From the NCBI GenBank assembly GCA_965215015.1, contig OZ244042.1:1696001-1760000 (forward strand): a stretch of 64,000 nucleotides of DNA. Reading direction: 5' to 3'. A model generated the notes under the pieces. The model had not been told where the DNA came from and did no database searches. It saw only the letters and a program-made list of their open reading frames with translations. Both the position numbers and the translations under genes were made by a program. The first letter of the stretch is position 1, and each line of letters opens with the position of its first letter. Shown piece after piece: positions 1 through 58,385 of this stretch. Source of the stretch: Candidatus Poribacteria bacterium (GTDB lineage: Bacteria > Poribacteria > WGA-4E > PCPOR2b).

Positions 1-91
1 CAACCTCCTTAAAACTCCAACCTTCAGGCAACTTCGCCCAATCCGCCAATTCTTCGTAGATATAATCTTCAGCACCAAGTCTTGTTGCCAT
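1..91 (-). CDS. 5' part of an NHL-repeat / peptidyl-alpha-hydroxyglycine alpha-amidating lyase-like beta-propeller protein (runs off the window)
   Basis: Manual translation gives MATRLGAEDYIYEELADWAKLPEGWSFKEV, with RBS GGAGG upstream. The W-x-KLPEGW-x-F-x-EV start is typical of this family. Confidence 0.65.
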   Translation of the reverse strand, partial: MATRLGAEDYIYEELADWAKLPEGWSFKEV

Positions 92-136
92 GCTTCGCCT
101 CCCTTACATGTGTGTTGTTTTAACTTTGTACAGGTT

Positions 137-1330
137 TCAGAAATCCTCTAAACCGAACCGATACCCGCGAATCTGCGCCATCGGCGCATCGTCGTTGATG
201 TAATTGACGGCTAAGAACTTTCCCCGTTCGTATTCGACCCATGCGGCGTAACCGCTATCGGCACCGAGGTTATTGGCATCAAGGTCTAGCGGGAGCAGCA
301 AGCCCTTTTGGGTTGCTTTATCTGGATTGAGTGCGCTCTCCAATGGCTCCAGAAATGCAAAGGTGTGGACCGATGAACCGCCTGCGGCGACAATCACTTC
401 ATCGTCTGTTACCAGTTCACTGGGTTCTGGCTGTCTACGGGCGATGAACGCCTCGTTAGCTGGGACTCTTGGGATGACAATGGTTCGTCGGGCCAACCGT
501 CTCTGCCAAGTCTCTGCCGACATGTCAACGCGCCAACAAGAACGCAAGCCAAAACGTCCAGTGATTAACATAAACCCATCTTGCGTGAGTCCCGCGACCG
601 GCATACCGTGAGCGGCTGGGTTTAGGGTGTCGTAGGGACCTTCCCACCGGAGACCGCCATCCTTAGAAATCATCTTTTGTAACGGACGCCCCAAATCCTC
701 CCGTAGGTAGACGACCAATTCCCCATTGGGACAAGGCACGATAGTCGCTTCATCAAGGGCGTAGTTAGGACTATCAAAGATAGTCAACGGTATATCCCAC
801 GTCTGCCCTTCGTCGTGGCTTGTTGTGATATTTTGGATAATCTGCCCGGTTTTCGGACTGCTAACGTTGCTCGGAAGTAGCCACCGGCCATCAGCCATCT
901 CCGTAACTATGTCCGGACAGATCCCTTTGACCGGAGTTGGAATCGGATCTGACCAGCTTTCTCCATCGTCATCGCTGAACCAGAGCACAATGTGGCAGTT
1001 TGCCTCCCCTTCTCCCCACTCCCCCGGTGGAAAAAGATAGGTATCACAGAGCAACAGAATCCGTCCGTCTTTGAGCTGCTGTATTTTGGGGCAGTTCCAC
1101 GTCGTCAAGACGCCGGTCGATTTATCTTCATCGCGGATCACCCGTGGCTCGGACCAAGTGTATCCCGCATCGTCACTGACTCGGACAATTAAGCGACAAA
1201 ACTCGCTCGCGACATGGCCGTTGCTCTCGCGATAGGTCAAGAGGATTCTATCGGTTCGGGAACGGCAGATATAGGGAAAACATTCATAGATGTCATCGTT
1301 CCGTGCAATGGTAAATTTCTCGATTGCCAT
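137..1330 (-). CDS. BNR/Asp-box repeat sialidase-family protein
   Basis: Four Asp boxes (SDDAGYTW, SDDDGESW, SHDEGQTW, SKDGGLRW) and a C-terminal DSGY motif. Start moved to the ATG at 1330. Confidence 0.8.
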   Translation of the reverse strand: MAIEKFTIARNDDIYECFPYICRSRTDRILLTYRESNGHVASEFCRLIVRVSDDAGYTWSEPRVIRDEDKSTGVLTTWNCPKIQQLKDGRILLLCDTYLFPPGEWGEGEANCHIVLWFSDDDGESWSDPIPTPVKGICPDIVTEMADGRWLLPSNVSSPKTGQIIQNITTSHDEGQTWDIPLTIFDSPNYALDEATIVPCPNGELVVYLREDLGRPLQKMISKDGGLRWEGPYDTLNPAAHGMPVAGLTQDGFMLITGRFGLRSCWRVDMSAETWQRRLARRTIVIPRVPANEAFIARRQPEPSELVTDDEVIVAAGGSSVHTFAFLEPLESALNPDKATQKGLLLPLDLDANNLGADSGYAAWVEYERGKFLAVNYINDDAPMAQIRGYRFGLEDF

Positions 1331-1371
1331 GGCTTCCACCCTGTCCAACAAATCATGTGGGACTTACCAAT

Positions 1372-2313
1372 TTACGAAGAAGCGTGCGATTTTATCTTAA
1401 GTATCTCCTGCAACTTTTCATCTCGCTCTGCGATGAGTGCACTCGCCTTTCCCGATGGATAGTCGTAAAAGCCAGAACCGCTTTTCGCACCTAATTTTCC
1501 CGCTGCAACTAAATCCTGAAGTGCTTTCGGAGAATCGGTTGCATTACTCAAGGATTTGGCAAGGTAGCTTCCAACTGTGTTGAAAATATCAAGCCCTCCG
1601 AGATCCGCAATCTCTAACGGACCAAGCAATGCCCAACGCAATCCCAATCCATGCTTCATCACCGCATCAATGTCAGCAGGTGATGCGATTCCTTCCTCAA
1701 CAAGATGTAACGCTTCGCGCACCACGGCAAACTGGATGCGGCTAGCGACAAATCCGGGGACATCTTTCTGCACCAGAATCGGCTGCTTTTGCATCTGTTT
1801 TGCCAAATCGATTAGGACTTCACAGGTCGCATCGGAGGTTGCTTGGCCCTTGATAATTTCTAGTGCAGGAACGATTTGGGGCGGATTGAAGTAGTGCATC
1901 CCTGCAAATCGCTCAGGATGGGAAACCGCTGTGGCAATCTGCGAAATGCTTAATCCAGAAGTGTTTGTTGTAAAGAGCGTCTTTGCGGCGCAGATTTCAT
2001 CCAGTTTCTGAAAGATATCCTGTTTTACTTCCAGTTTTTCAGCAATCGACTCTGAGATGAGGTCAACCTGTGCGAGTTCCGTCAAATCGTGGGTGGCGTA
2101 AATTTTTGCACTTGCGGCATTTGTCTCTATCCCAATGTGGGCAGAAGTCACAGCGATATTAGGGCGGATACGTTCCAAGGCGCGCTGCATCCCCGCCTTA
2201 CTCCTGTTGTACAGAATCACAGTGTAACCAAATTCCGCGAAGATTTCTGCGACACCCGCTCCCATTGTGCCTGCACCGACAATACCAATCTTTTTAATGC
2301 TTTCAATATCCAT
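1372..2313 (-). CDS. 3-hydroxyacyl-CoA dehydrogenase family protein
   Basis: GAGTMG Rossmann motif, ESIAEKLEVK, NTSGLS, HYFNPP, GKLGAKSGSGFY. Confidence 0.9.
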   Translation of the reverse strand: MDIESIKKIGIVGAGTMGAGVAEIFAEFGYTVILYNRSKAGMQRALERIRPNIAVTSAHIGIETNAASAKIYATHDLTELAQVDLISESIAEKLEVKQDIFQKLDEICAAKTLFTTNTSGLSISQIATAVSHPERFAGMHYFNPPQIVPALEIIKGQATSDATCEVLIDLAKQMQKQPILVQKDVPGFVASRIQFAVVREALHLVEEGIASPADIDAVMKHGLGLRWALLGPLEIADLGGLDIFNTVGSYLAKSLSNATDSPKALQDLVAAGKLGAKSGSGFYDYPSGKASALIAERDEKLQEILKIKSHASS

Positions 2314-2316
2314 ACT

Positions 2317-3216
2317 TTATTCCCCCGCTAGCACCGCTTCGATCGCCTGCAATTCCGCAGCTGTCAACCGCCAATCCTGTCCCCCGACGTGCTCGGCGAC
2401 CTGTTCAGGCGTTTTTGCGCCGACGAGGACACAGGTAATCCCCGACAGCCGCAACTGCCAACCAATTGCTAATTGAATGAGCGTAAGATTCCGTTCTTGA
2501 GCGATGGTTTGCAGCTTTTCTGCTATCGCCAAGTTTCTCCGAAATTCTTCCCCTTGAAATCGGGACATCCCTGAGCGTTCATCGTCTGCCGGAAATTGAT
2601 GATCTGGCGTGTACTTGCCGGTTAGTAACCCCTTGGCCAATGGACTGTATGGGAGGATGCCGATGCTACGCGCCTCGCAGTAGGGTAGTATTTCCATCTC
2701 GATTTCACGGTCGAGCAGGCTGTAACGGGGTTGAAGTGAATGAAAAGACGCGGTTTGGGTGGCGAGTTCCATCTGTTCAACGTTGAAGTTGGAGACGCCA
2801 ATATAGCGCGTCTTGCCTTCTTGACGTAACTTTTCCATCATTTCCATACTGTCATCGACCGGATACTGCGGATTCCAGCCGTGGATCTGATAGAGATCTA
2901 CATAATCTGTTTGTAACGCACGTAGGCTATTCTCCATCGCATGGCGGATAGCATCCGGCGAATAGTCCCTGCTGACCTTTGTAGCGAGAAAAACCCGCGC
3001 TCGTCGGCCGCCCTTCAACGCTTTGCCGATGATTGCCTCCGATACACGGTATGATTGTGCGGTGTCGATGAGCGTAATGCCGTGGTCAAGCACCGCGTGC
3101 ACTGTGGCAATTGCTGCCCCTTCATCAACTACGCCCATTGCTCCACCAATGGGCCAAGCCCCGAAACCAATTACGGATACACGGTCTCCATCTTTTCCTA
3201 GTTGTCGTTTTTCCAT
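2317..3216 (-). CDS. Aldo/keto reductase
   Basis: GFGAW, IDTAQSY, LATK, DLYQIH, IGVSNF, PYSPLAKGLLTGKY. Confidence 0.92.
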   Translation of the reverse strand: MEKRQLGKDGDRVSVIGFGAWPIGGAMGVVDEGAAIATVHAVLDHGITLIDTAQSYRVSEAIIGKALKGGRRARVFLATKVSRDYSPDAIRHAMENSLRALQTDYVDLYQIHGWNPQYPVDDSMEMMEKLRQEGKTRYIGVSNFNVEQMELATQTASFHSLQPRYSLLDREIEMEILPYCEARSIGILPYSPLAKGLLTGKYTPDHQFPADDERSGMSRFQGEEFRRNLAIAEKLQTIAQERNLTLIQLAIGWQLRLSGITCVLVGAKTPEQVAEHVGGQDWRLTAAELQAIEAVLAGE

Positions 3217-3398
3217 CTATTTGCCTCCTACAAATGCCTAATCAACAGTCCGCCATCTTTCTCTTTTAGAGCTAAGCCTCAAGTATTTTAGCACACCATC
3301 GGTTTTTATGCGAAAAAAATGGGGCACTAGTGTGCAACTGCTCTGTCAATGGATAGGGGTTTTGGGATCTTTCAGGCTATACTCTATTTTGTCAGTGT

Positions 3399-5510
3399 CA
3401 ATCTCCCCCAAAATCAGTTTAGGGGCGAACCTTACCGACTGTCTGAATCTGGATTAACAGGATTTTAGGATTCCCAGGATTGACTGTCTCCCTTGTCCTT
3501 CACTATCCTGCAAATCCTTCCATCTTAAAGATCCTGATTCTAACAAGTTACAGACTGCTCCTTCCAAAATCATCGCCGCATTCTGTCTGAATCGGGATTG
3601 ATTGGATTTTAGGATTAACCGGATTGACTGTCTCCCTTGTCCTTCACTATCCTGCAAATCCTTCCATCTTGAGCATCCTGATTCTGACAAGTTACAGACT
3701 GCTCCTTCCAAAATCATCGCTGCATTCTGTCTGAATCGGGATTGACTGTCTCCCTTGCCCTTCGCTATCCTGCAAATCCTTTCATCTTGAAGATCCTGAT
3801 TCTGACAAGTTACACAATCTCCTCCAAAATTATCGCCGTATTCTGTCTGAATCGGGATTTACCAGATTTTAGTATTCACCGGATTGACTGTCTCCCTTGC
3901 CCTTCGCTATCCCGAAAATCCTTCCATCTTGAGAATCCTGATTCTAACAAGTTACACATTGCTCCTTCCAAAATCATCGCGACATTTGTCTGAATCTGGA
4001 TTGATTGGATTTTAGGATTCACCGGATTGGCTTTATCCCTTGCCCTGCACTATCCTGAAAATCCTTTCATCTTGAGAATCCTGATTCTAACAAGTTACAC
4101 ATTGCTCCTTCCAAAATCATCGCCGCATTCTATCTGAATCTGGATTGATTGGATTTTAGGATTCACCGGATTGGCTTTATCCCTTGCCCTGCACTATCCT
4201 GAAAATCCTTTCATCTTGAGAATCCTGATTCTGACAAGTTACACATTGCTCCTTCCAAAATCATCGCGACATTTGTCTGAATCGGGATTGATTGGATTTT
4301 AGTATTCACCGGATTGACTTTATCCCTTGCCATTCACTATCCTGCAAATCCTTCCATCTTGAGCATCCTGATTCTGACAAGTTACACAATCTCCTCCAAA
4401 ATTATCGCGACATTTGTCTGAATCGGGATTTACCGGATTTTAGTATTAACCGGATTGACTGTCTCCATTGCCCTTGGCTATCCCGAAAATCCTTCCATCT
4501 TGAGCATCCTGATTCTGACAAGTTACACACTGCTCCTTCCAAAATCATCGCGACATTTGTCTGAATCGGGATTTACCGGATTTTAGTATTAACCGGATTG
4601 ACTGTCTCCATTGCCCTTCACTATCCCGAAAATCCTTCCATCTTGAGCATCCTGATTCTGACAAGTTACACATTGCTCCTTCCAAAATCATCGCGACATT
4701 TGTCTGAATCGGGATTTACCGGATTTTAGTATTAACCGGATTGACTCTCTTGCCATTGCCCTTGGCTATCCTGCAAATCCTTCCATCTTGAGCATCCTGA
4801 TTCTGACAAGTTACACATTGCTCCTTCCAAAATCATCGCGACATTTGTCTGAATCGGGATTTACCGGATTTTAGTATTAACCGGATTGACTCTCTTGCCA
4901 TTGCCCTTGGCTATCCCGAAAATCCTTCCATCTTGAGCATCCTGATTCTGACAAGTTACACACTGCTCCTTCCAAAATCATCGCGACATTTGTCTGAATC
5001 GGGATTTACCGGATTTTAGTATTAACCGGATTGACTGTCTCCATTGCCCTTCACTATCCCGAAAATCCTTCCATCTTGAGCATCCTGATTCTGACAAGTT
5101 ACACATTGCTCCTTCCAAAATCATCGCGACATTTGTCTGAATCGGGATTTACCGGATTTTAGTATTAACCGGATTGACTGTCTCCATTGCCCTTGGCTAT
5201 CCCGAAAATCCTTCCATCTTGAGCATCCTGATTCTGACAAGTTACACATTGCTCCTTCCAAAATCATCGCGACATTTGTCTGAATCGGGATTTACCGGAT
5301 TTTAGTATTAATAGGATTGCCTCTATCCACTGCCCTTGGCTATCCTGACAATCCTTTCATCTTGAGAATCCTGATTCTGACAGTTTACAGCCCCTCCTCC
5401 AAAATCATCGCCGCATTCTGTCTGAATCTGGATTGACTGGATTGATTTTATCAGCTATTAGTGCTGATTATCCTGCGAATCCTTTCCTCCTGAATATCCC
5501 ATTCTAACCA
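3399..5510. repeat. Tandem array 1: 15 copies of a ~106-bp imperfect palindrome separated by ~35-38-bp hsdM-3'-end-like linkers (unit ~143 bp)
   Basis: Palindromes (TGTCTGAATCxGGATT...ATCCTGATTCTGACA) start at 3440, 3584, 3728, 3844, 3987, 4131, 4274, 4415, 4558, 4701, 4846, 4991, 5134, 5277 and 5419 (last one degenerate). Linker is AGTTACACATTGCTCCTTCCAAAATCATCGCGACATT and variants. An extra degenerate linker lies at 3399-3416. Confidence 0.95.
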
Positions 5511-5749
5511 TTGGCCCTGTCATCTCCTCTGCGATCGATTCCGTTCCCATATTTATCTTATCATATCCAATACCAAAAGTCACATCATTCATATCATGAC
5601 ACTGGTGAGGTTTTATCCTCCCGATACTTGAAACCCCGATGGTTTTTTTTGTATTCAGATCTGCGTTGAGGTATAATATTAAATAATTGTGAGGAAGCGT
5701 TTCTTATTACATTTTACGTTTTAGGCATTACGTTTTTGTTGGAGGAACT

Positions 5750-6004
5750 ATGAAAGTTAAGGTTAAATATTTTGCAGTTTTACATGAAGAGTTAGATCGA
5801 GACGAAGAAGATATGGACCTACCAGAGGGAACAACCGTGAGGGCTATCTTGGACCGCCTGGAGGCAGAGTGGCCCGAAATCGCAGAATACTACGATGTGA
5901 TGCAAATGTCTGTGAATTGGGAGTATGCCACGCCGGATAGCGAACTTTCAGATGGCGATGAGGTCGCTCTGATTCCACCGGTGACCGGAGGTCAAGATGT
6001 TTAA
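5750..6004 (+). CDS. moaD: Molybdopterin synthase sulfur carrier subunit
   Basis: VKVKYFA start and DGDEVALIPPVTGG end; adjacent to moaE; RBS GGAGG. Confidence 0.9.
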   Translation: MKVKVKYFAVLHEELDRDEEDMDLPEGTTVRAILDRLEAEWPEIAEYYDVMQMSVNWEYATPDSELSDGDEVALIPPVTGGQDV

Positions 6005-6431
6005 AATTATCAGCGAAGAGATCGAATTAGGAGATGTAATTGGTGCGGTCGAAGCGGGAGATGCAGGGGCGATCGTCCACTTCCTAGGAGTTGTTCGTAA
6101 CAACACGGAAGGCAGAGAGGTCTCCTATCTCGAATATGAAGCCTATCCACCGATGGCAGAAAAGAAGATGGCGGAAATTGCACAGGAGATTCACAAAAAG
6201 TGGGGACTAGACCGCGTTGCCATGATTCATCGCGTAGGACGATTGGAAATCGGTGAGGTCAGTGTTGCAGTCGCTGTCGCCTCTCCGCATCGTAAAGAGG
6301 CGTTTGAGGCATGTCATTATGCGATGAATCGGCTGAAACAAATTGTGCCTATTTGGAAACGAGAGGTCTGGGTGGATGGCGAGGAGGAGTGGGTTAAGCC
6401 TGATCCCGTGTTCTTTAAGGCGGAAGTCTGA
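5997..6431 (+). CDS. moaE: Molybdopterin synthase catalytic subunit
   Basis: GAIVHFLGVVRN, LEYEAY, HRVGRL, SPHRKEAF, LKQIVPIWKRE. Confidence 0.95.
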   Translation: MFKIISEEIELGDVIGAVEAGDAGAIVHFLGVVRNNTEGREVSYLEYEAYPPMAEKKMAEIAQEIHKKWGLDRVAMIHRVGRLEIGEVSVAVAVASPHRKEAFEACHYAMNRLKQIVPIWKREVWVDGEEEWVKPDPVFFKAEV

Positions 6432-6638
6432 ACCTTACGCTTGAAAGTCAAGGCGCAGAAAGGCGGCAAAAAATGGACATGACATCGACGGTTTTCACTG
6501 CTGGCGGTGCGATGATAGTAAGGTAACCGCTTTATCTATCGGCTCCTGTTCTGGCCCCAACCGACCGATATGATACGTATGTGTCTGTTTATAACAAAAT
6601 TGTATCTTCCGTAAAGTTTCGACTTTAATCAAACCTCC

Positions 6639-9600
6639 TTACAATTCTGCCACAACTTCCATTCCCACCCGGTGTTCCGGTTTATTCTGTGCTGTTGAAA
6701 GCAGGCGGTAATTGAATCGTAACAGCAAATCTGTCACCTTCCGGACCTTGTAATCCGCAGTGGTGCGGACTTCGTGACTAATTCCTGCGTAAAAATTATA
6801 TCGCGTAAAAGGAATACCGCCCTCGCTGCTTCCGTGGTTGAGGCGATAGGTGAAGTCGAATCGCCCCTTGCTGATAAAGGAATAAGTGAACCGATTTTCC
6901 AGCGAGAAAGTTCGGGTCCGGGCTTCTGGCATGTCATCAAGATGCTCACGATCGGCAGTAAATTCGTGGATGCCGGCAACGCCGAACTGTAAAACACGGC
7001 TGAGCTCATAGTTGAATTCAAGTGTGTTCACGCGCTCAAACTGCGTCAGATCGGAAATCGCTGCTGACGCGTTTCCCGCCGGATCCAGTTCAGTAAACCG
7101 TTCCTCTTGCTGACGCTGTTCCCATTTTGCCTTGAATGAGAGTTTTGACGTTGGGTTCAGCGTTAAATCCACCTCCCAATCCCGGCTGTGTCGGCGCCGC
7201 TCCCGGCTATTAATCCGCTTGCTGAGGAGACGATTGATATCAAAACTGAGGTCTAGACTCAATAGCGATGAAGGGGAAAAGTCGAGGCGATACCGCTGGT
7301 TAATTCGCCCAAAAATTGTGCGTTCATTTCGCAGGTTGCGTAACAAATAAAGACTTGCTGGATCTGGGGCTTCCTGCTCTTCTGTAATATTGACAACACC
7401 CTGGCCACGAATAGCATTTGCCAACCAAACTAAGTTACTTTGAGTTTCAATCTTCCTAGATCCCACTGTTGTAGCGTTCCTCCGACGCGACGTGAGGCGG
7501 CGGGGTTGAAAACGTAGACTCAACTTCATATCAATTGCAGAAACAGGCTTGTCATCAACGTTTTGGATGAATTTGATATAATCTCCCTCCTCGAAATCTT
7601 CCCGGTAATGCAGATCATCAATTTTGACATAATGTCCTTCACCCGGCTTAATCTCCCGCCCCGTGTACGGATTGATGTTTGTAAAAATTTCACGTCGCTC
7701 CGTTGCCAACTTTTTGTCGAGTTCATAGGTGAATTGCCCGTCCAACGCTCGGTTGAATGGCGTGAGACGCATTTCGATATCCGCCAGCTGTGTCCTTGAA
7801 TCAGATTCTAGCTCTCGCTGTGTTTTGAACACCCGCCGAGAGATATTTGTAGAGACATTTGCCCATTGACGCGGTTGAGAAAAAAGACCTACCGTCCAAG
7901 TCCTCGCCTTCGTCGCCGACCGCCAATCCGAGAAGCCTAAAGCCTTTCCATCAACGATGAGCAGAGGTTCTTTATCAAAAGCACTTTCGATCGCGTATTT
8001 CGTGTTAATTGACACCCATCTAACGTCTACCAGATCGAGCCGCGCTGTCGAAATAGTCCGTTTTCGGTTGAGGTTCACATTATCGTCGAGATCGAGATCA
8101 ATCGCTTCCAACCGTTCGACGGAGGCATTCAGATTGAACAGACGAATGCGCTGCGAGAGTTGGCCGTGCCTGCGGGATTTGCGGAATTGATCCTGTCCCC
8201 TGACTTTCGAGGTACTCCTTCGGTAATCGCCTCTGAAGCGGGGGAGGTATAGGCGTTTCATCAACCCTGCCCGTGGGTTGAAATCGAAGCCGCCGTTGAG
8301 GTTGTTGCGCAGGGTGACATCAGCGAGTGAGGTAGCTGTATCGACACCATTGAGGCTTTGCTGATTTGCTGATTCCTTGAAATGTTCCTCTGTGCGTCCT
8401 AAGCCGTAATCCAATTTTAGCCAATTGACCGGCTTTACCTGTAGGTCAAGATCTATGGACTTCTCATCAGGGGTTTGGGCTGCGCCTGCATCACCCAGTA
8501 GGTATAGGTCGTCGAACTGTTCATCGGTGTATTGCTCCTCATATCGAAACCGGGTGCGGTTTGTACTGGACGCACCGACAGGCACGAAATCGGCATCAAG
8601 GAATCGAAGATTCAGATTCAATAAAAGTTTCTCGGTTGATGAATTGGCAAGGAACTTCCAGGCCCGACTCAGTGTCTTTCGGTCTCGGTCAGAGAAGGTG
8701 TTCTGGTCCAGCGCACCAAAAGCGATCTGTCCCTCCAGTGTTGGGGTGTGTTGTAGGAGTCCTTGACTTTCAGTGAAATCGAGGCGTCCGTTGACGCCCC
8801 ATACGGTGCGTCGCTGTGGTGCGATGAGAAGGTTCCCATCCCCGTCTGCATCTAACTCGTTTCTCTGAAGCTCCTTAAACTCCTGTTCATTTATAATAAT
8901 GAAAGCATTTCGCGGATCATTTAGATCCGATTCAACCGCATAGCCGAAGCCAATTGTAACGCGCTCGCCGGGTAAATTCAACGAACCACTGATGCCTTGC
9001 AGATTTCGCCGATATGCCAAGTCTTCGGGGATAAATTCAAAATCGACGCGGATGATTTCATTGCTTGTGATTAAGTGTTTGCTCGTAAATTCAATAATTG
9101 GATCGCCGTAGTCGCGGATCACATAGTCATTGTTTTCTCCGCGCCGCATCCGTTGACCGTTCAACCAGACAATTTCAGTTCCCGCTTTGACGATGACAAA
9201 CTCACCATCGACATCAATACGATATTCGCTGCGCCCCTCCTCGCCTCGGATTGTCTTGCTCGCAGATCGTCCCTTGGGAATGGCACTTGGTATGAGATGA
9301 AACTTCCCCCACTTGAAATCTCCTGCGACCTGCACACCCTCCAACGCACGATTAAAAAATATATCCGTATTGCCGAGCGATCCCTCAAAATCGCCTAATA
9401 ACCCAGTGACATTCGGGCTTGTGATGCGGATGAGTTTCTGATCGATGTCTTGAATATTTTCGGTCGTGCCTTCGGGTTGGATGGGGAGGTCTTGGTCCGA
9501 GAGCAGTGCCGTGACTTTGATATTCTCCGAGACTTTTCCGTCAACGCTGATTCGCAAGGCACGCTCCTGAGATAGTGCCCTCTTGCTGCCGACGGAGATA

Positions 9601-10091
9601 CCGAATGTCTGACTCCCTGTCACTTGCACCGGAGGCAGTGCTGACTCTGATGGACGCTGTTGGGTTAGATCTGTACGGGGTTCAAGTTCAACCTGACTGG
9701 GCGGTTGCTCCAACGGCTGATCTTGTCGAAAGAGGTCTCGTTTATACCCTTTTTTAATTGCGAAAGGCAAAACCCTATAGCTAATTTGAATAGTAGCATC
9801 AGGAGGATAGTCCTTCAGAAATCGGAGCGTTCCCGCACGATAATCAATAAGATAATCTAAGTTTTTAGTGAGCTGCACCCCGTTAATTGTTATACGTTCA
9901 CTGTCACGGATAGGGGGCCAATGCTTCAGGATAAAAGGATCAGAGAGATCTTTGAATCGAATGGATTCGGTTTTCTCCAAAAGGGAGAGGGGCGGTAATT
10001 GGAATAGGTCGCGCTTGGATTCTGCGGCGTAAGATACGGAAATGAGAATGCCAATGAGTAAGAAATGCGACGTTGCCAGAAGTTTCCCCAT
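6639..10091 (-). CDS. Large secreted, probable outer-membrane beta-barrel protein (1150 aa)
   Basis: Signal peptide; DYxIDYxxG-type repeats; LSDQDLPIQPEGTT motif; alternating amphipathic beta-strand pattern through the C-terminal half. Confidence 0.65.
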   Translation of the reverse strand: MGKLLATSHFLLIGILISVSYAAESKRDLFQLPPLSLLEKTESIRFKDLSDPFILKHWPPIRDSERITINGVQLTKNLDYLIDYRAGTLRFLKDYPPDATIQISYRVLPFAIKKGYKRDLFRQDQPLEQPPSQVELEPRTDLTQQRPSESALPPVQVTGSQTFGISVGSKRALSQERALRISVDGKVSENIKVTALLSDQDLPIQPEGTTENIQDIDQKLIRITSPNVTGLLGDFEGSLGNTDIFFNRALEGVQVAGDFKWGKFHLIPSAIPKGRSASKTIRGEEGRSEYRIDVDGEFVIVKAGTEIVWLNGQRMRRGENNDYVIRDYGDPIIEFTSKHLITSNEIIRVDFEFIPEDLAYRRNLQGISGSLNLPGERVTIGFGYAVESDLNDPRNAFIIINEQEFKELQRNELDADGDGNLLIAPQRRTVWGVNGRLDFTESQGLLQHTPTLEGQIAFGALDQNTFSDRDRKTLSRAWKFLANSSTEKLLLNLNLRFLDADFVPVGASSTNRTRFRYEEQYTDEQFDDLYLLGDAGAAQTPDEKSIDLDLQVKPVNWLKLDYGLGRTEEHFKESANQQSLNGVDTATSLADVTLRNNLNGGFDFNPRAGLMKRLYLPRFRGDYRRSTSKVRGQDQFRKSRRHGQLSQRIRLFNLNASVERLEAIDLDLDDNVNLNRKRTISTARLDLVDVRWVSINTKYAIESAFDKEPLLIVDGKALGFSDWRSATKARTWTVGLFSQPRQWANVSTNISRRVFKTQRELESDSRTQLADIEMRLTPFNRALDGQFTYELDKKLATERREIFTNINPYTGREIKPGEGHYVKIDDLHYREDFEEGDYIKFIQNVDDKPVSAIDMKLSLRFQPRRLTSRRRNATTVGSRKIETQSNLVWLANAIRGQGVVNITEEQEAPDPASLYLLRNLRNERTIFGRINQRYRLDFSPSSLLSLDLSFDINRLLSKRINSRERRRHSRDWEVDLTLNPTSKLSFKAKWEQRQQEERFTELDPAGNASAAISDLTQFERVNTLEFNYELSRVLQFGVAGIHEFTADREHLDDMPEARTRTFSLENRFTYSFISKGRFDFTYRLNHGSSEGGIPFTRYNFYAGISHEVRTTADYKVRKVTDLLLRFNYRLLSTAQNKPEHRVGMEVVAEL

Positions 10092-50035: not shown

Positions 50036-50752
50036 ATGAATAACATTGCAGCAATTTTCACGAAAGAGTTTAGGGGCTACTTTAATTCGCCTATCGCCTA
50101 TATCTTTATCACATTTTTTCTCGCACTGGCCGCCTGGTTTTTCTTTCGAGGCTTTTTCCTCGTAGGTCAAGCCGTGATGAGAAGTTTCTTCAGTTGGGTG
50201 CCGTGGATATTCCTTCTGTTCATTCCGGCGGTCACCATGAAGCTCTGGGCAGAGGAAAAAAAGATAGGCACGGTCGAAATCCTGATGACCCTTCCTATCA
50301 AGGATCACGAAGTGGTCATCGGGAAATACCTTGCCAGCTTTAGCCTCCTTGGGGTAACCATTCTTCTCTCCCTTTCTATACCGATTACCGTCTCCTACCT
50401 TGGGGAACCGGATGGGGGACCTATCCTCGGCGGCTATATCGGGCTTCTCCTGATGGGAGCGGCTTACCTCTCTATTGGGATGTTTGCCTCCACCATTACG
50501 GAAAATCAGATTATCGCTTTCATCCTTGGGATTGTGATGTGCTTCGCGCTATTCATCATCGGTGAAGACATCGTGCTTTTCAATGCGCCGAACTGGATTG
50601 TCCCAATTTTCAGCTACCTCGGTTTGGGTGCCCATTTTAGCAGCATTCTGAGAGGCGTTATCGATTCGCGAGATCTCATCTATTACTTTTCTGTTATCGG
50701 TTTTTTCCTCTATTTGAGTGTCTTGATGGTTACAGTTCAGAAATGGAGATAG
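50036..50752 (+). CDS. ABC-2 permease (GldF-like)
   Basis: KEFRGYFNSPIAY, AEEKKIGTVEILMTLP, TENQIIAF. Confidence 0.88.
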   Translation: MNNIAAIFTKEFRGYFNSPIAYIFITFFLALAAWFFFRGFFLVGQAVMRSFFSWVPWIFLLFIPAVTMKLWAEEKKIGTVEILMTLPIKDHEVVIGKYLASFSLLGVTILLSLSIPITVSYLGEPDGGPILGGYIGLLLMGAAYLSIGMFASTITENQIIAFILGIVMCFALFIIGEDIVLFNAPNWIVPIFSYLGLGAHFSSILRGVIDSRDLIYYFSVIGFFLYLSVLMVTVQKWR

Positions 50753-50756
50753 ACCT

Positions 50757-52406
50757 ATGGCTGCAAAAACATTAAAATACGGAGGCAATACACTCGCCTT
50801 TATTCTAGTCGTATTAGGCATTGTCGCATTAATCAATTTCCTATCAAGTCGTCGTTTCATTCGTGCAGACCTCACCGCGGATAAGCGATACACAATTTCA
50901 CAATCGACCAAAAAAGTTCTCAAGCGGCTAGACGACATTGTGACAATTGATGTCTATTTTTCACGGAAGCCACCGCGTGTCTCCCAGATTCGTCAATCCG
51001 TCCGTGATATGCTTGAGGAATATCGGGCCTTTTCCAAAAATTTGCAGATTAACTTTATTGACCCCGGAACAGATGACGAAGCCCAAAAACAGAAACTTCG
51101 ATTTATGGGGATTCCTGAAGTGCAGGTGAACGTCATCGAAAAAGACAAAGCGGAAACCGCTAACGTGTATATGGGTATCGCGATCCTCTATGCGGACAAA
51201 AAAGAGGTTCTCCCGGTTGTCCAGACGACTGCCAACCTCGAATACGACCTGACTTCCGCTATTCTCAAAGTAACAAGCGAAGAGGTCAAAACGATCGGAT
51301 TCCTCTCAGGACATGATGAGATAGACGTTTTTGGTCAGGCCTTCGGGGCACTGCGCGAAGAATTGAGCAAACAGTACGATGTGAGAAAAGTGTCAATCAA
51401 CGATGGCAAGGCGATTGACGCCGATGTCGCAACGCTGGTCATCGCAGGCCCCAAAAAAGAGTTGACAGAACGCGAAAAATACGAAATTGATCAGTTTATT
51501 ATGCGGGGTGGACGTGCCCTGTTTCTAATCGATCCGGTCCTTATCGAATACGAGGGCCTAAGTGTAAGCCCTCTGAAGACCGGGCTGAACGATTTGTTGG
51601 AACATTATGGTGTCAAGCTCAACGACAATCTGGTGCTCGATGTCTCCATGGGACAACTCACCTATTCACAGGGTTTCATGACGGTAGCAACAAGCTATGC
51701 GTATTTCATCAAGGTACTGAAGCAGTACCAATATCGCACCGGGGAAACCTCAGAGGGGTTATCGAAGGACAGTATTATCACGAACCAGTTGGAAAGCCTG
51801 ATCTTGCCTTGGGCGGGGTCGCTCGAACTGTTTCCCAGAGAGGATGCCTCCGTCGAAACGGTCGTGCTCGCCAAAACCAGCAGAGGAGGTTGGACAGCTC
51901 AAAGTCCTTACAACATCAATCCGACGAACCGCCAATTCCAACCACCCGCTTCTATGCAGCAGACGCATACCGTTGCGGTGTCGCTTTCAGGTGTGTTCAA
52001 GAGCTTTTACGCTGGTAAAACTATCCCACCTGCCGAATCTAGCGAACCCGACGAAGCCGTGGCAGCTAAACCGGCTGAGGAAGAACGAACCATAAAAACC
52101 GACAGTGAAACGACCCAGATCGTCGTAGTTGGAAATTCCCAATTTTTGCAACAGGGGCGCCCCGACGGTCAACTCTTTTTCTTAAATACGGTGGACTGGC
52201 TCACCCTTGGCGAGGAATTGATTAACATAAGATCCCACGGCGTCACAAACCGCCCATTGAAAGAAATCTCCGAAAGTGAGAAATTCTTTCTCAAGTTTGT
52301 CAGCATTGCTGGCGTACCAATGCTCGTCGTCGCCTTTGGGTTGGTTCGATTTTTCTTGAGAAGGAGGGCAAAACGGTTGGTTGAAGCGTATGGATCCATG
52401 TCATAA
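50757..52406 (+). CDS. GldG-like ABC auxiliary protein
   Basis: DLTADKRYTIS, EYDLTSAI, FLSGHDE, IDQFIMRGG, FFLNTVDWL; TM helices at both ends. Confidence 0.85.
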   Translation: MAAKTLKYGGNTLAFILVVLGIVALINFLSSRRFIRADLTADKRYTISQSTKKVLKRLDDIVTIDVYFSRKPPRVSQIRQSVRDMLEEYRAFSKNLQINFIDPGTDDEAQKQKLRFMGIPEVQVNVIEKDKAETANVYMGIAILYADKKEVLPVVQTTANLEYDLTSAILKVTSEEVKTIGFLSGHDEIDVFGQAFGALREELSKQYDVRKVSINDGKAIDADVATLVIAGPKKELTEREKYEIDQFIMRGGRALFLIDPVLIEYEGLSVSPLKTGLNDLLEHYGVKLNDNLVLDVSMGQLTYSQGFMTVATSYAYFIKVLKQYQYRTGETSEGLSKDSIITNQLESLILPWAGSLELFPREDASVETVVLAKTSRGGWTAQSPYNINPTNRQFQPPASMQQTHTVAVSLSGVFKSFYAGKTIPPAESSEPDEAVAAKPAEEERTIKTDSETTQIVVVGNSQFLQQGRPDGQLFFLNTVDWLTLGEELINIRSHGVTNRPLKEISESEKFFLKFVSIAGVPMLVVAFGLVRFFLRRRAKRLVEAYGSMS

Positions 52407-56550: not shown

Positions 56551-57210
56551 TCAATCGGTGGCGATATCAAGTTTGGATGCGTCAATCTCACCGGAGATTA
56601 GTTTTGGGAGCAAGAGGTTGCGGGTTTGGCGGAGGGTGGTATTTTTCAGTGTTAGGTTTATCAATTCCGAAAAGATTGGATTGGTAATTTCTTCAAACTT
56701 GCTAATCACTGATTCTGGCGGGGCTAGCAATGGAATCCCCAACAGATCTGTCTTTCTGATTGCATTGAAGATGGCTCCGCTTCCCATCGTGTCCTCTTCT
56801 TGGAATCTATCTTTCAATTGTTGAAGCAAAAACGCCTGACTCCCACCCTTGCTCCGGATTGCAGAGAGCCCACGACCTATTACAAGTTTCTTGTTTGCGA
56901 TATTTATTCGTCCGACAGGCGCCCGAACACTGAATAATATGTCTCCTACCTTAGCGATACGCTTTTGAATTGTGCAATAAACTCGATCCGTTGGGAATCG
57001 GTTTCCAAAGTCTGTGACCCCCTGATGGAAAGGCAGACCGTCGCCGGTCTCATTGTAGAACTCAGATTTAGGGGACAACCCCATTATGACATGGCACATT
57101 TCACCAAGTCTGCTTACCTCCCATCCTTGCGGTATCAACCCCAACTCCGACTCTACCATTGGCACCCGCTCACGAAGAATTACACGATCCCATTTTCCTT
57201 TTGCCATCAT
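56551..57210 (-). CDS. hsdS: Type I R-M specificity subunit, single-TRD (half) form
   Basis: SELGLIPQGWEV, GDILFSVRAPVG, IGRGLSAI, LRQTRNLLLPKLISGEI. Confidence 0.88.
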   Translation of the reverse strand: MMAKGKWDRVILRERVPMVESELGLIPQGWEVSRLGEMCHVIMGLSPKSEFYNETGDGLPFHQGVTDFGNRFPTDRVYCTIQKRIAKVGDILFSVRAPVGRINIANKKLVIGRGLSAIRSKGGSQAFLLQQLKDRFQEEDTMGSGAIFNAIRKTDLLGIPLLAPPESVISKFEEITNPIFSELINLTLKNTTLRQTRNLLLPKLISGEIDASKLDIATD

Positions 57211-58183
57211 ACTGCTCCTTCCAAAATCATCGCGACATTTGTCTGAATCGGGATTTACTGGATTTTAGGATTCACCGGATTGACTTTATCCGCTGCCCTT
57301 CACTATCCTGAAAATCCTTCCATCTTGAGAATTCTGATTCTGACAAGTTACAGACTGCTCCTTCCAAAATCATCGCCGCATTCTGTCTGAATCTGGATTT
57401 ACCGGATTTTAAGATTCACCGGATTGACTCTCTCCATTGCCCTTCACTATCCTGAAAATCCTTCCATCTTGAGAATCCTGATTCTGACAAGTTACACAAT
57501 CTCCTCCAAAATCATCGCCGCATTCTGTCTGAATCTGGTTTTACAGGATTTTAGGATTCACCGGATTGACTCTCTCCATTGCCCTTCACTATCCTGAAAA
57601 TCCTTCCATCTTGAAGATCCTGATTCTGACAGGTTACCCCGTCTTGCTGTTTACAGGACGAAGATAAGTGCTCCTTCTTACCTCCCTTAATCCCCCCGCA
57701 AGCAGGGGGAGAGGCAAGACTCTACGGCTTCTGTTACACTCATTCTTTACATGAGCAAATCTGAATCTGGATTGATTGGATTTTAGGATTCACCGGATTG
57801 ACTCTCTCCATTGCCCTTGGCTATCCTGCAAATCCTTCCATCTTGAGAATTCTGATTCTGACAAGTTACACAATCTCCTCCAAAATCATCGCGACATTTG
57901 TCTGAATCGGGATTTACTGGATTTTAGGATTCACCGGATTGACTCTCTCCATTGCCCTTGGCTATCCTGCAAATCCTTCCATCTTGAGAATCCTGATTCT
58001 GACAAGTTACACACCCTCCTCCAAAATTATCGCGACATTCTGTCTGAATCTGGTTTTACCGGATTTTAAGATTCACCGGATTGACTCTCTCCATTGCCCT
58101 TGGCTATCCTGCAAATCCTTCCATCTTGAGAATCCTGATTCTGACAAGTTACACACCCTCCTCCAAAATCATCGCGACATTCT
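57211..58183. repeat. Tandem array 2: six copies of the same palindrome plus hsdM-end linker, between hsdM' and hsdS
   Basis: Palindromes at 57240, 57384, 57526, ~57758, 57899 and 58041; interruption at 57632-57757 containing a CCCCCCGCAAGCAGGGGG REP. Confidence 0.95.
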
Positions 58184-58385
58184 CAGAAATCCGTTTCTCC
58201 AACTGATACGCCTCAGCGTTCAGGGCTTCCAATTCCTCGTTAAGCTCCCCCAACCGTTCCGCGAAGTCAAACGCCTCTACTTCCCGGTCTGCAACCCCGA
58301 CATACCGTCCCGGATTGAGGCTCCACCCCTGCGCCTCAATTTCTGCAACCGTAGCCACCCTGCAGAGTCCGGGCACATCACGGCA
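58149..58385 (-). pseudogene. hsdM: 3' fragment of a type I R-M methyltransferase
   Basis: [29 protein letters not shown]...[12 protein letters not shown]...[13 protein letters not shown]; in-frame stop just upstream; catalytic domain absent. Confidence 0.8.

Follow-up and report, generated by a model that had tools for sequence, protein, structure and literature searches.

A tandem array of inverted-repeat elements and hsdM gene ends in a Candidatus Poribacteria genome, probably the relic of a satellite hsdS locus

The REP (repetitive extragenic palindromic) and BIME (bacterial interspersed mosaic element) arrays and the REPINs (REP doublets forming hairpins) of Enterobacteria and Pseudomonas are short, imperfectly palindromic, high-copy intergenic repeats that follow the ends of genes and can be arranged in tandem with conserved linkers between them. 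Direct repeats of more than 30 bp that flank genes inserted at restriction-modification (R-M) loci, with no transposase nearby and sometimes overlapping the 3′ end of the neighboring gene, are described in the accessible portion of Furuta, Abe and Kobayashi 2010 (PMC2853133). The available parts of other sources report phase-variable hsdS invertons in type I systems with multiple hsdS genes (PMC7672463), orphan hsdS genes that work with hsdM and hsdR encoded elsewhere (PMC12418389), and defense genes embedded in type I R-M operons, both TgvAB in VPI-2 of Vibrio cholerae (PMC11411939) and the cases of a preprint by Payne et al. 2024 (10.1101/2024.01.29.577857). Here we analyze a stretch of 64,000 nucleotides, hereafter the window, from a Candidatus Poribacteria bacterium (assembly GCA_965215015.1, contig OZ244042.1, positions 1,696,001 to 1,760,000). 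It contains a 2-kb tandem array, array 1, in which an inverted-repeat element of ~107 nt (P) alternates with a linker (L) that is a copy of the 3′ end of hsdM. Array 1 is probably the decayed remnant of a satellite hsdS locus whose P-L junction has expanded.

Array 1 spans window positions 3440-5519 and totals 15 copies of P and 14 of L. Cutting it at the TGTCTGAATC anchor gives 14 tandem P+L units on the plus strand (3440..5418), each composed of a P (TGTCTGAATC...GATTCTGACA) and an L of 35-38 nt. The units measure 141-145 nt, except for one truncated unit of 116 nt (3728-3843) from which 28 nt of the left arm are missing. A degenerate fifteenth P (5419..5519, plus strand; nhmmer 29 bits, 54-58% identity to the other units) is joined to the flank on the moaD side. 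Tandem Repeats Finder (TRF) reports the array at 3439-5443 with a period of 143-144 nt. An earlier reading made from the letters alone, without database searches (the sequence-only reading), had proposed an array of 15 units of ~143 bp built on a palindrome; the array is real, but its "palindrome" folds only as a weak hairpin.

Read on the minus strand, L encodes N[VAT]A[MI]ILE, followed by EGAV or EGAM in 11 units and by EEIV-stop or EEGL-stop in three. The sequence-only reading had given these endings correctly, save that the EGAV/EGAM linkers of the 11 units exceed the native hsdM tail by 2 nt and lack an in-frame stop. In native form L is the last 33-36 nt of hsdM. The two matches that had been claimed elsewhere in the window also hold: the tail recurs at the end of an hsdM fragment (58149-58183) and at 57207-57239, where NVAMILEGAV-stop overlaps the hsdS start codon (ATGA). 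L thus contains a stop codon overlapping the hsdS start and, we infer, a GGAGG-like ribosome-binding sequence for hsdS.

The 73-aa product of the hsdM fragment aligns at 69-89% identity with the C-terminal ends of 19 full-length frames (521-645 aa) from 18 relatives. Ten of these frames were confirmed to carry HsdM_N and N6_Mtase domains, and all ten end ...ENV[AT]MILE..V-stop. Three hsdM genes from other families of the order, with no P nearby, end ...ENVAKILENMV-stop, ...ENVAMILER-stop and ...ENVAAILSR-stop. Because these P-less genes still end alike, the tail is ancestral to hsdM, and L was copied from hsdM rather than the reverse. The proposed homology of the linker to intact hsdM 3′ ends is therefore seen in 10 relatives and in the three P-less genes. 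Three intact hsdM genes of other lineages are present in this genome and have different ends, and a search with the 73-aa fragment as query found no intact hsdM of the present lineage in the genome, which speaks against array 1 now serving an R-M system.

The location of array 1 identifies the gene that it once accompanied. The array lies between an aldo/keto reductase gene (akr; 2317..3216, minus strand; Pfam PF00248, E 2e-73) and moaD (ThiS family) with moaE (5750..6431, plus strand; Pfam PF02597 and PF02391). The sequence-only reading had described this place as free of any R-M gene or recombinase and the array as an orphan. The flanks are as it stated, and window positions 1-9000 contain no recombinase open reading frame (ORF) by ORF list and Pfam, but about 32 codons of hsdS stand directly to the left of the array. 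This 3′ remnant (3330..3423, minus strand; PKLILGE..IDTDKIE..KPLSIDRAVAH-stop) was detected by tblastn with the HsdS of relative G014. It aligns to residues 389-427 of the 427-residue HsdS encoded at the orthologous site in G014, and its DNA is 80% identical to the G014 flank. The match to the HsdS C-terminus indicates that an hsdS gene once stood between akr and moaD here, of which the first ~390 codons, together with L, have been deleted.

Comparison with relatives shows what such a site looks like when occupied. The genes akr and moaD are neighbors in 18 of 19 same-genus genomes. Among 11 relatives examined, the interval between them is 340-724 nt in four and 1.1-4.0 kb in the rest, and in seven more genomes only 110-191 nt separate the matched flank segments (BLAST coordinates). 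Five of the 11 intervals (G011, G010, G001, G003 and G014) carry a Methylase_S gene (hsdS) on the minus strand, and neither hsdM nor hsdR was found at this satellite site in the relatives. On the AKR side of the satellite hsdS, four of the five have accessory genes (AAA_21/DUF4276 or DUF433, with DUF5615 in G011), while G014 has hsdS alone. A copy of P scoring at least 34 bits lies on the moaD side of four (G011, G010, G001 and G014), and an L-like motif accompanies two (G003 and G014), in G014 only 10 nt from the hsdS start. Two of the suggestions made from sequence alone are consistent with these arrangements: the scar of an excised R-M locus, since the C-terminal remnant of hsdS abuts array 1, and a landing pad for hsdS, given the satellite genes with P and L beside them.

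Other intervals preserve parts of the arrangement. That of G017 keeps L, P and a DUF433/DUF5615 pair without hsdS. The short intervals of G015 and G005 share the moaD-side flank CTCTGCGATCGATT of array 1 and retain a ~19-nt stretch resembling the left arm of P (16 of 19 positions, by reading); they may be collapsed rather than virgin sites.

In G014 the satellite and operon copies of HsdS can be compared directly. They are 58% identical overall and have unrelated second domains, and they are ~90% identical over the first ~220 residues, which hold the first target-recognition domain and conserved regions (by alignment reading). Such a pattern is the classic footprint of hsdS domain exchange, and it suggests that the satellite hsdS contributes to varying the specificity in genomes with an intact system.

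The operons to which these satellites correspond have a consistent order in relatives: hsdM.L - P - cargo - P - L.hsdS - accessory genes - hsdR. P directly follows hsdM.L, and a second L stands behind the downstream P in six of ten operons. In four of them (L054, L058, L060 and, with a 4-nt overlap, L056) this second L directly abuts the hsdS start, as it does in array 2 of the window, whereas L052 and L055 have further cargo between it and hsdS. The cargo between P copies includes PDDEXK_3, 8xMP, ThsB_TIR, DUF2806, SLFN_AlbA_2 and Mrr+STAND genes, and a helix-turn-helix protein is also encoded between hsdM and hsdS. The sequence-only reading had asked whether cassettes sit between units elsewhere, and in relatives they do. 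Accessory genes between hsdS and hsdR encode AAA_21, PIN_3 and DUF433 proteins. No operon of this lineage in which hsdM and hsdS directly abut, that is, an empty site, was found among those of the relatives. In crude longest-ORF calls, two frames appear to be hsdS read-throughs: Methylase_S + NACHT + NCH2 in G014 (L061:3494-7210, 1238 aa) and Methylase_S + DUF433 in G004 (L058:7118-8611, 497 aa).

Array 2, which has the same orientation as array 1 as the sequence-only reading had noted, retains more of such an operon. Array 2a (57207..57637, plus strand) begins with the L that is fused to the hsdS start by the ATGA overlap and continues P-L-P-L-P. A spacer with a G+C-rich palindrome (CCCCCCGCAAGCAGGGGG; 57638..57757, plus strand) separates it from array 2b (P-L-P-L-P; 57758..58148, plus strand). 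On one side follow the last 73 codons of hsdM (58149..58370, minus strand, with native L at 58149-58183), the remainder of the gene being gone. On the other side is a half-size hsdS of 219 aa (56551..57210, minus strand; Pfam Methylase_S 3e-08), whose product starts with MAKGKWDRVILRE joined to RVPMVESELG: 13 N-terminal residues run directly into the central conserved region, so that one target-recognition domain is left. The start of that domain (WEV..) is also found in the second domain of the satellite HsdS of G014. Because array 2, which lies beside Lactamase_B and cytochrome c554/TPR (tetratricopeptide repeat) genes, is syntenic with an intact operon in G017, it is a decayed operon that has kept 73 codons of hsdM and an hsdS without its first target-recognition domain and has lost hsdR.

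A further array between LptF and LptG genes in this genome keeps ~45 nt of the hsdM 3′ region, at the place where six operons of five relatives sit, and is a second scar, that of a whole hsd operon. Since the genome has thus lost both hsd operons of this lineage too, array 1 is now inert in it. The CCCCCCGCAAGCAGGGGG palindrome constitutes a second small repeat family, present in the gap of array 2, in the same spacer within the LptF/LptG scar (L088:6315-6404) and beside other arrays (L078 and L068).

These observations can be combined into a probable history of array 1. The body of hsdS between akr and moaD would have been deleted, leaving ~32 codons, after which the upstream P-L junction would have multiplied to 14-15 copies by unequal crossing-over or replication slippage. 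Exchange or slippage of this kind is indicated by a homogenized center, divergent edges and multi-unit periods: in an identity matrix the six central units (4415-5276) are 95-100% alike and the edge units 81-92%, and TRF also detects higher-order periods of 288 and 433 nt. The expansion was probably due to unequal crossing-over. Recombination between two P copies that deleted the cargo from L-P-cargo-P-L would leave L-P-L, a single "empty" unit that could seed an array. In genomes with an intact system, shared P-L tracts might likewise act as portable homology, at which recombination could insert or delete genes between hsdM and hsdS or swap hsdS alleles between the operon and the satellite site. 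Of the mobile, self-amplifying module proposed by the sequence-only reading, the tandem expansion stands (identity matrix), but independent movement of P+L is not supported, the LptF/LptG site being an operon scar.

The sequence of P itself gives further clues to its nature. An alignment of 44 copies, taken from this genome and from relatives, shows strong conservation in the arms and a variable center. Each arm carries four GGATT motifs at a spacing of 8-9 nt, and the element begins TGTCTGA and has the termini TGT...ACA. P folds no better than shuffled sequences (z = -0.56 as RNA and -0.43 as DNA). Although 92% of cells in the 44 copies pair between the arms, this results from sequence conservation and not from covariation: 27 pairs x 44 copies contain only one compensatory cell, and values as high as those observed also arise in shuffled controls. 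Rfam gave no match for the whole window at gathering thresholds and none for 4400-4860 at E up to 5. P as a structured RNA or functional hairpin was rejected on these three grounds. A search for inverted repeats with a 9-nt exact seed reported none for array 1, because the arms of P are too imperfect. P is therefore better described as an element with inverted-repeat arms than as a palindrome, and the pattern is one expected of an element that has spread recently or of sites bound by proteins in duplex DNA.

P is not confined to hsd genes. An nhmmer profile search of this genome yielded 271 hits, representing 205 distinct copies or fragments of P in 66 clusters, with arrays of up to 14-18 units. 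Copies run head-to-tail within many arrays, and a gene 3′ end faces the array in one fixed orientation of P in 18 of 24 arrays of at least three copies and in 42 of the 66 clusters overall. P often overlaps the stop codon of the preceding gene, by 1-14 nt for several R-M-type genes. At 20 array loci analyzed with Pfam (L076-L095), type ISP, Eco57I-type IIG, DUF1156/DUF499 or SNF2 genes lie directly against nine of the arrays, and a tenth has a nearby helicase/SACS-domain pair whose role is uncertain.

Arrays of the form (gene tail + P)n behind Eco57I-type IIG or type ISP genes are found at, for example, 376953-377645, 3336836-3338292 and 3795537-3797370, with further examples at 3803580-3804638 and 5413500-5414521 of this genome's contig. 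Extra copies of the gene's own last 21-68 nt alternate with P for six of 11 R-M-type genes tested, and in three type IIG arrays the gene takes its stop codon (...ENV-stop) from the opening bases of P, TGTCTGA. Because type IIG and type ISP-type genes thus show copies of their own tails alternating with P, a tandem "gene tail + P" is a general habit of R-M genes in this genome and is not peculiar to hsdM. The idea that the palindrome belongs specifically to hsd is accordingly not borne out: P is genome-wide, tails type IIG and type ISP genes, abuts DUF1156 genes and has an arm that recurs in many phyla.

Two DUF1156 paralogues differ at their ends. The one at L094:6581-9469 (minus strand) ends ...IKIVEGAENV-stop, a tail typical of the Eco57I-type genes and arrays, and the one at L084:2603-5527 (plus strand) ends ...EVLPPKQAPVP-stop; a P-linked tail seems to have replaced the native end of one paralogue. 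Across the 5.94-Mb genome TRF finds 144 tandem-repeat loci with a period of at least 50 nt, many of them unrelated to P; those with 102-nt and 126-nt periods at 2.76 Mb and 3.26 Mb, for example, may be coding repeats.

Nor is P confined to this genome. All 19 same-genus genomes carry it, as do 22 of the 24 family genomes. A collection of species-representative genomes contains more than 130 exact matches to a left-arm 24-mer with 22 fixed bases, where by our calculation ~0.07 matches would be expected by chance. The matches, named by record title, fall in Candidatus Poribacteria, Dehalococcoidia, Caldilineaceae, many Bacteroidota, Anabaena/Dolichospermum, Methylococcaceae, Marithrix and Chlorobiaceae. 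P behaves as a conserved non-coding element, and its arm is common, almost base for base, to Poribacteria, Chloroflexota, Bacteroidota, Cyanobacteria and some Proteobacteria.

Eighty of these more than 130 loci were analyzed further. A matching distal arm lies within 260 nt in 35 of the 80, giving elements of 50-224 bp, and at eight loci there is more than one match, one of these loci being an array of eight copies from a Dehalococcoidia genome. Among 128 flanking ORF pieces searched with Pfam, PDDEXK_3 occurs at six loci, Methylase_S pieces at two loci of one contig, and Type_ISP_C, TIR and HEPN once each; the remainder are housekeeping genes or have no hit, and none of the 128 is an integrase. 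A PDDEXK_3 gene of the "GxxExxY" type in relative G022 (L060:10089-10490) is 71% identical to a gene of a Draconibacterium metagenome-assembled genome (L118:406-822), and each adjoins a P arm, which suggests that the gene and the repeat were recently transferred together across phyla.

Several observations weigh against a history based on plain homologous recombination at a decayed satellite site. Homology alone leaves unexplained both the near base-for-base conservation of P arms across phyla and the constant orientation of P behind gene ends, seen in the 18 of 24 larger arrays. Relative G003 has embedded genes but almost no P. With the 73-aa query, no hsdM match was obtained in G011 and only a weak one in G001 (E 9e-9), and the satellite hsdS genes of these two genomes may no longer be functional spares but relics. 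That operon and satellite exchange sequence would be deduced from a single shared-domain pattern, no event having been directly observed. Finally, at a locus near 51 kb in this genome (51215-51502, L076), exactly 2.0 P-L units lie upstream of a tyrosine recombinase gene. The units replace a ~290-bp segment that relatives have at this position, with each joint at one and the same GAAT of the P arm, GAGAAT^CCTGATTC. This locus looks more like the product of a site-directed or circle-mediated event than of random crossing-over.

Such features have led us to consider, as a possible but distinctly less probable explanation, that a dedicated site-specific system recombines at P, with P-L units as the "empty cassettes" of an integron-like exchange that embeds genes and moves hsdS. 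The cross-phylum conservation of the arms, their four GGATT motifs and the lack of compensatory changes are what protein-binding sites in duplex DNA would show. Moreover, ectopic arrays consist of whole numbers of circularly permuted units: besides the 2.0 units at 51 kb there are 3.0 circularly permuted units, with a 5-nt overlap, at a 1,503-kb locus, and only these two loci look like true ectopic copies of P+L. The identity pattern of array 1 fits unequal exchange instead, and the genome has no integron integrase, the best hit to IntI (TIGR02249) being 49.9 bits, against a cut-off of 265, at 4.17 Mb and none lying beside array 1.

Two candidate enzymes for this system are a multi-copy family of tyrosine recombinases and PDDEXK_3, a small PD-(D/E)XK nuclease encoded inside some P copies. 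The recombinase family has 12 copies or fragments in this genome (for example at 6759-7730, 2380293-2381291, 2864648-2865331 and 50260-51039) and one to nine copies in 25 of 40 relatives. At the position corresponding to the 51-kb locus, relatives G014, G004 and G005 (L256-L258) have a ~290-bp segment with perfect 18-bp inverted repeats at its ends, which looks invertible. A candidate 8-bp repeat at the 51-kb locus is the inverted repeat of this recombinase-linked segment, and the recombinase inverted repeat resembles the end of the P arm at 12 of 17 positions (by-hand alignment). P arms lie at most 250 nt upstream of several recombinase copies here, but these copies belong to one subfamily of 89-91% identity, with the arm ~150-170 nt upstream of the start, and so are not independent; in relatives a P arm was found at only two of 28 recombinase loci. 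We therefore set the recombinase linkage aside, the P-arm copies in this genome being paralogues of one element.

PDDEXK_3 starts right after the proximal P arm in hsd operons of four or five relatives, including G022, and occurs within 400 nt of P at the six cross-phylum loci. Of 22 strong PDDEXK_3 genes in relatives, however, only seven have any P arm nearby and four have arms on both sides, and this genome contains no PDDEXK_3 gene and no member of the 23S_rRNA_IVP family, so that PDDEXK_3 was rejected as a general mobilizer. A more general proposal, which we regard as speculative, is that P is the site of an undescribed recombination system shared across phyla, whose GGATT-studded arms would be recognized by the recombinase, by PDDEXK_3 or by a protein not yet seen. 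If so, breaks or strand exchange at P would drive the embedding of defense genes into R-M operons just behind stop codons. The same system would move hsdS with its hsdM-tail leader between operon and satellite and would deposit the "empty cassette" P-L units that build arrays.

It is less likely still that P is a transposing miniature element that inserts behind stop codons with duplication of 33-57 nt of target, so that repeated insertion builds (tail+P)n arrays. Several features are compatible with this mechanism: the extra own-tail copies alternating with P for six of 11 R-M-type genes, the stop codon that P provides in three type IIG genes and the overlaps of 1-14 nt in several others, the transposon-like TGT...ACA termini with inverted arms, and the insertions with direct duplications of more than 30 bp that the accessible part of PMC2853133 documents around R-M genes. 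However, one-by-one insertion predicts one more L than P, whereas array 1 has one more P than L, and duplication in blocks accounts better for the near-identity of its internal units and for its multi-unit periods. Solo copies of P showed no short target duplications. A search for a parent transposon found no rve-type transposase in the genome, and no RAYT-type (REP-associated tyrosine transposase) Y1 gene is flanked by P: the two PF01797 hits, of which the first is broken and the second a frame of 91 aa, are ~26-30 kb from the nearest P clusters. RAYT and rve transposases were thus both rejected as mobilizers of P.

We consider it very unlikely that array 1 functions as it stands, for instance as a row of promoters or of sites bound by proteins in front of moaD/moaE, or as a source of antisense RNA against hsdM tails. 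The array does contain 16 sigma-70-like sites, against 6.4 +/- 2.4 in shuffled sequences, and in the cross-species alignment the columns that hold a plus-strand TTGACT-18-TATCCT are almost invariant. These conserved hexamers overlap the GGATT motifs, which offer another explanation for their conservation, and a minus-strand GAGACA-17-TAAAAT site is exclusive to the subfamily of array 1. A scan found no terminator-like site, and there was no Rfam match at E up to 5. In at least 11 of the 18 relatives that have both flanks the interval is short and contains no array, so the array is dispensable for moaDE.

That array 1 is a collapsed or misplaced assembly of array 2 or of another P-L array is the least credible possibility of all: no contig or read spans the 2 kb, so that its copy number rests on the assembly, but Logan contigs from four runs of two studies cross both junctions with the flanks (2900-3506 and 5402-6100) with zero differences, unit-specific unitigs match within the array, its units are only 82-92% identical to those of array 2 (truncated units lower), and P occurs at the same site in relatives, together with an L-like motif in G017, G003 and G014. 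Farther along the right flank, a 1150-aa ORF adjoins moaE (6639-10091, minus strand) and matches no Pfam family at E <= 0.001.

The decayed satellite hsdS site with an expanded P-L junction thus remains the explanation that we favor. Array 1 is a relic, and its value is as a pointer to the wider P system, in which one ~107-nt element and a duplicated hsdM tail bound embedded genes across a whole family and the same module marks a conserved second site for hsdS. The P-L module gives a tangible starting point for testing how R-M operons acquire cargo and alter their specificity.

Among known repeats, P resembles terminal-inverted-repeat elements such as MITEs (miniature inverted-repeat transposable elements) in its inverted termini. 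Array 1 differs from CRISPR (clustered regularly interspaced short palindromic repeats) loci in that both parts of the unit are repeated, the linkers forming one sequence family with no unique spacers. Arrays of integron attC sites, or CALINs (clusters of attC sites lacking integron-integrases), are closer, since there imperfect palindromes of ~60-140 bp bound cassettes, and relatives of our genome carry cassette-like genes between P copies. P differs from attC in lacking the R''/R' core pair, in folding weakly, in having "cassettes" of 36 nt and in sharing the long tract L rather than a 7-bp core. The inverse core pair RYYYAAC ... GTTRRRY is absent from P, which ends in TGTCTGAATC and GATTCTGACA, and a GTTACAC that follows P has no inverse partner. 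The 14 intervals between successive P copies in array 1 hold no ORF cassettes and are all 35-38-nt copies of one sequence.

Like REP, BIME and REPIN repeats, P is a high-copy intergenic inverted repeat that lies behind gene ends and forms tandem arrays. It differs in that its copies run head-to-tail in one orientation instead of alternating, its linker is the coding tail of the upstream gene, it is a weak hairpin and its arm is conserved in many phyla.

Compared with multi-hsdS systems as the available parts of the sources describe them, the spare hsdS of G014 likewise shares conserved regions and one target-recognition domain with the expressed copy, and a phase-variable multi-hsdS feature may exist in that relative. 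In this genome the spare copy is deleted, and all that remains of a type I system of this lineage is a 73-codon hsdM fragment, half an hsdS and an hsdS tail remnant. The arrangement in relatives departs from those systems in that the spare copy is at least ~50 kb away in direct orientation, with no inverted repeats inside hsdS and no adjacent invertase, and in that a copy of the hsdM tail can serve as its leader (an L-like motif in two of five).

The embedding of defense genes in type I R-M operons also has a clear parallel here, with relatives carrying PDDEXK_3, ThsB-TIR, Schlafen/AlbA_2, Mrr-STAND, AAA_21, PIN and other genes between hsdM, hsdS and hsdR. The accessible portions of PMC11411939 and 10.1101/2024.01.29.577857 give no insertion mechanism, whereas here the cargo is bounded by a recurring P and a duplicated hsdM tail.

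A further likeness is to long target duplications: an L of 33-36 nt flanks the cargo between hsdM and hsdS much as the repeats of PMC2853133 flank inserted genes. That paper, in its accessible portion, describes neither a companion element nor arrays. Here the duplicated tail always occurs with a specific inverted-repeat element, arrays reach 14-18 units and several unrelated R-M families are involved. A 16-mer of the P arm was in no paper by a full-text search that did not extend to ~1.7 million PMC articles, and the literature searched held no description of P or of gene-tail-plus-P arrays. As far as searched, then, an inverted-repeat element that is shared across phyla, tails R-M genes, duplicates their ends and bounds their cargo is new.

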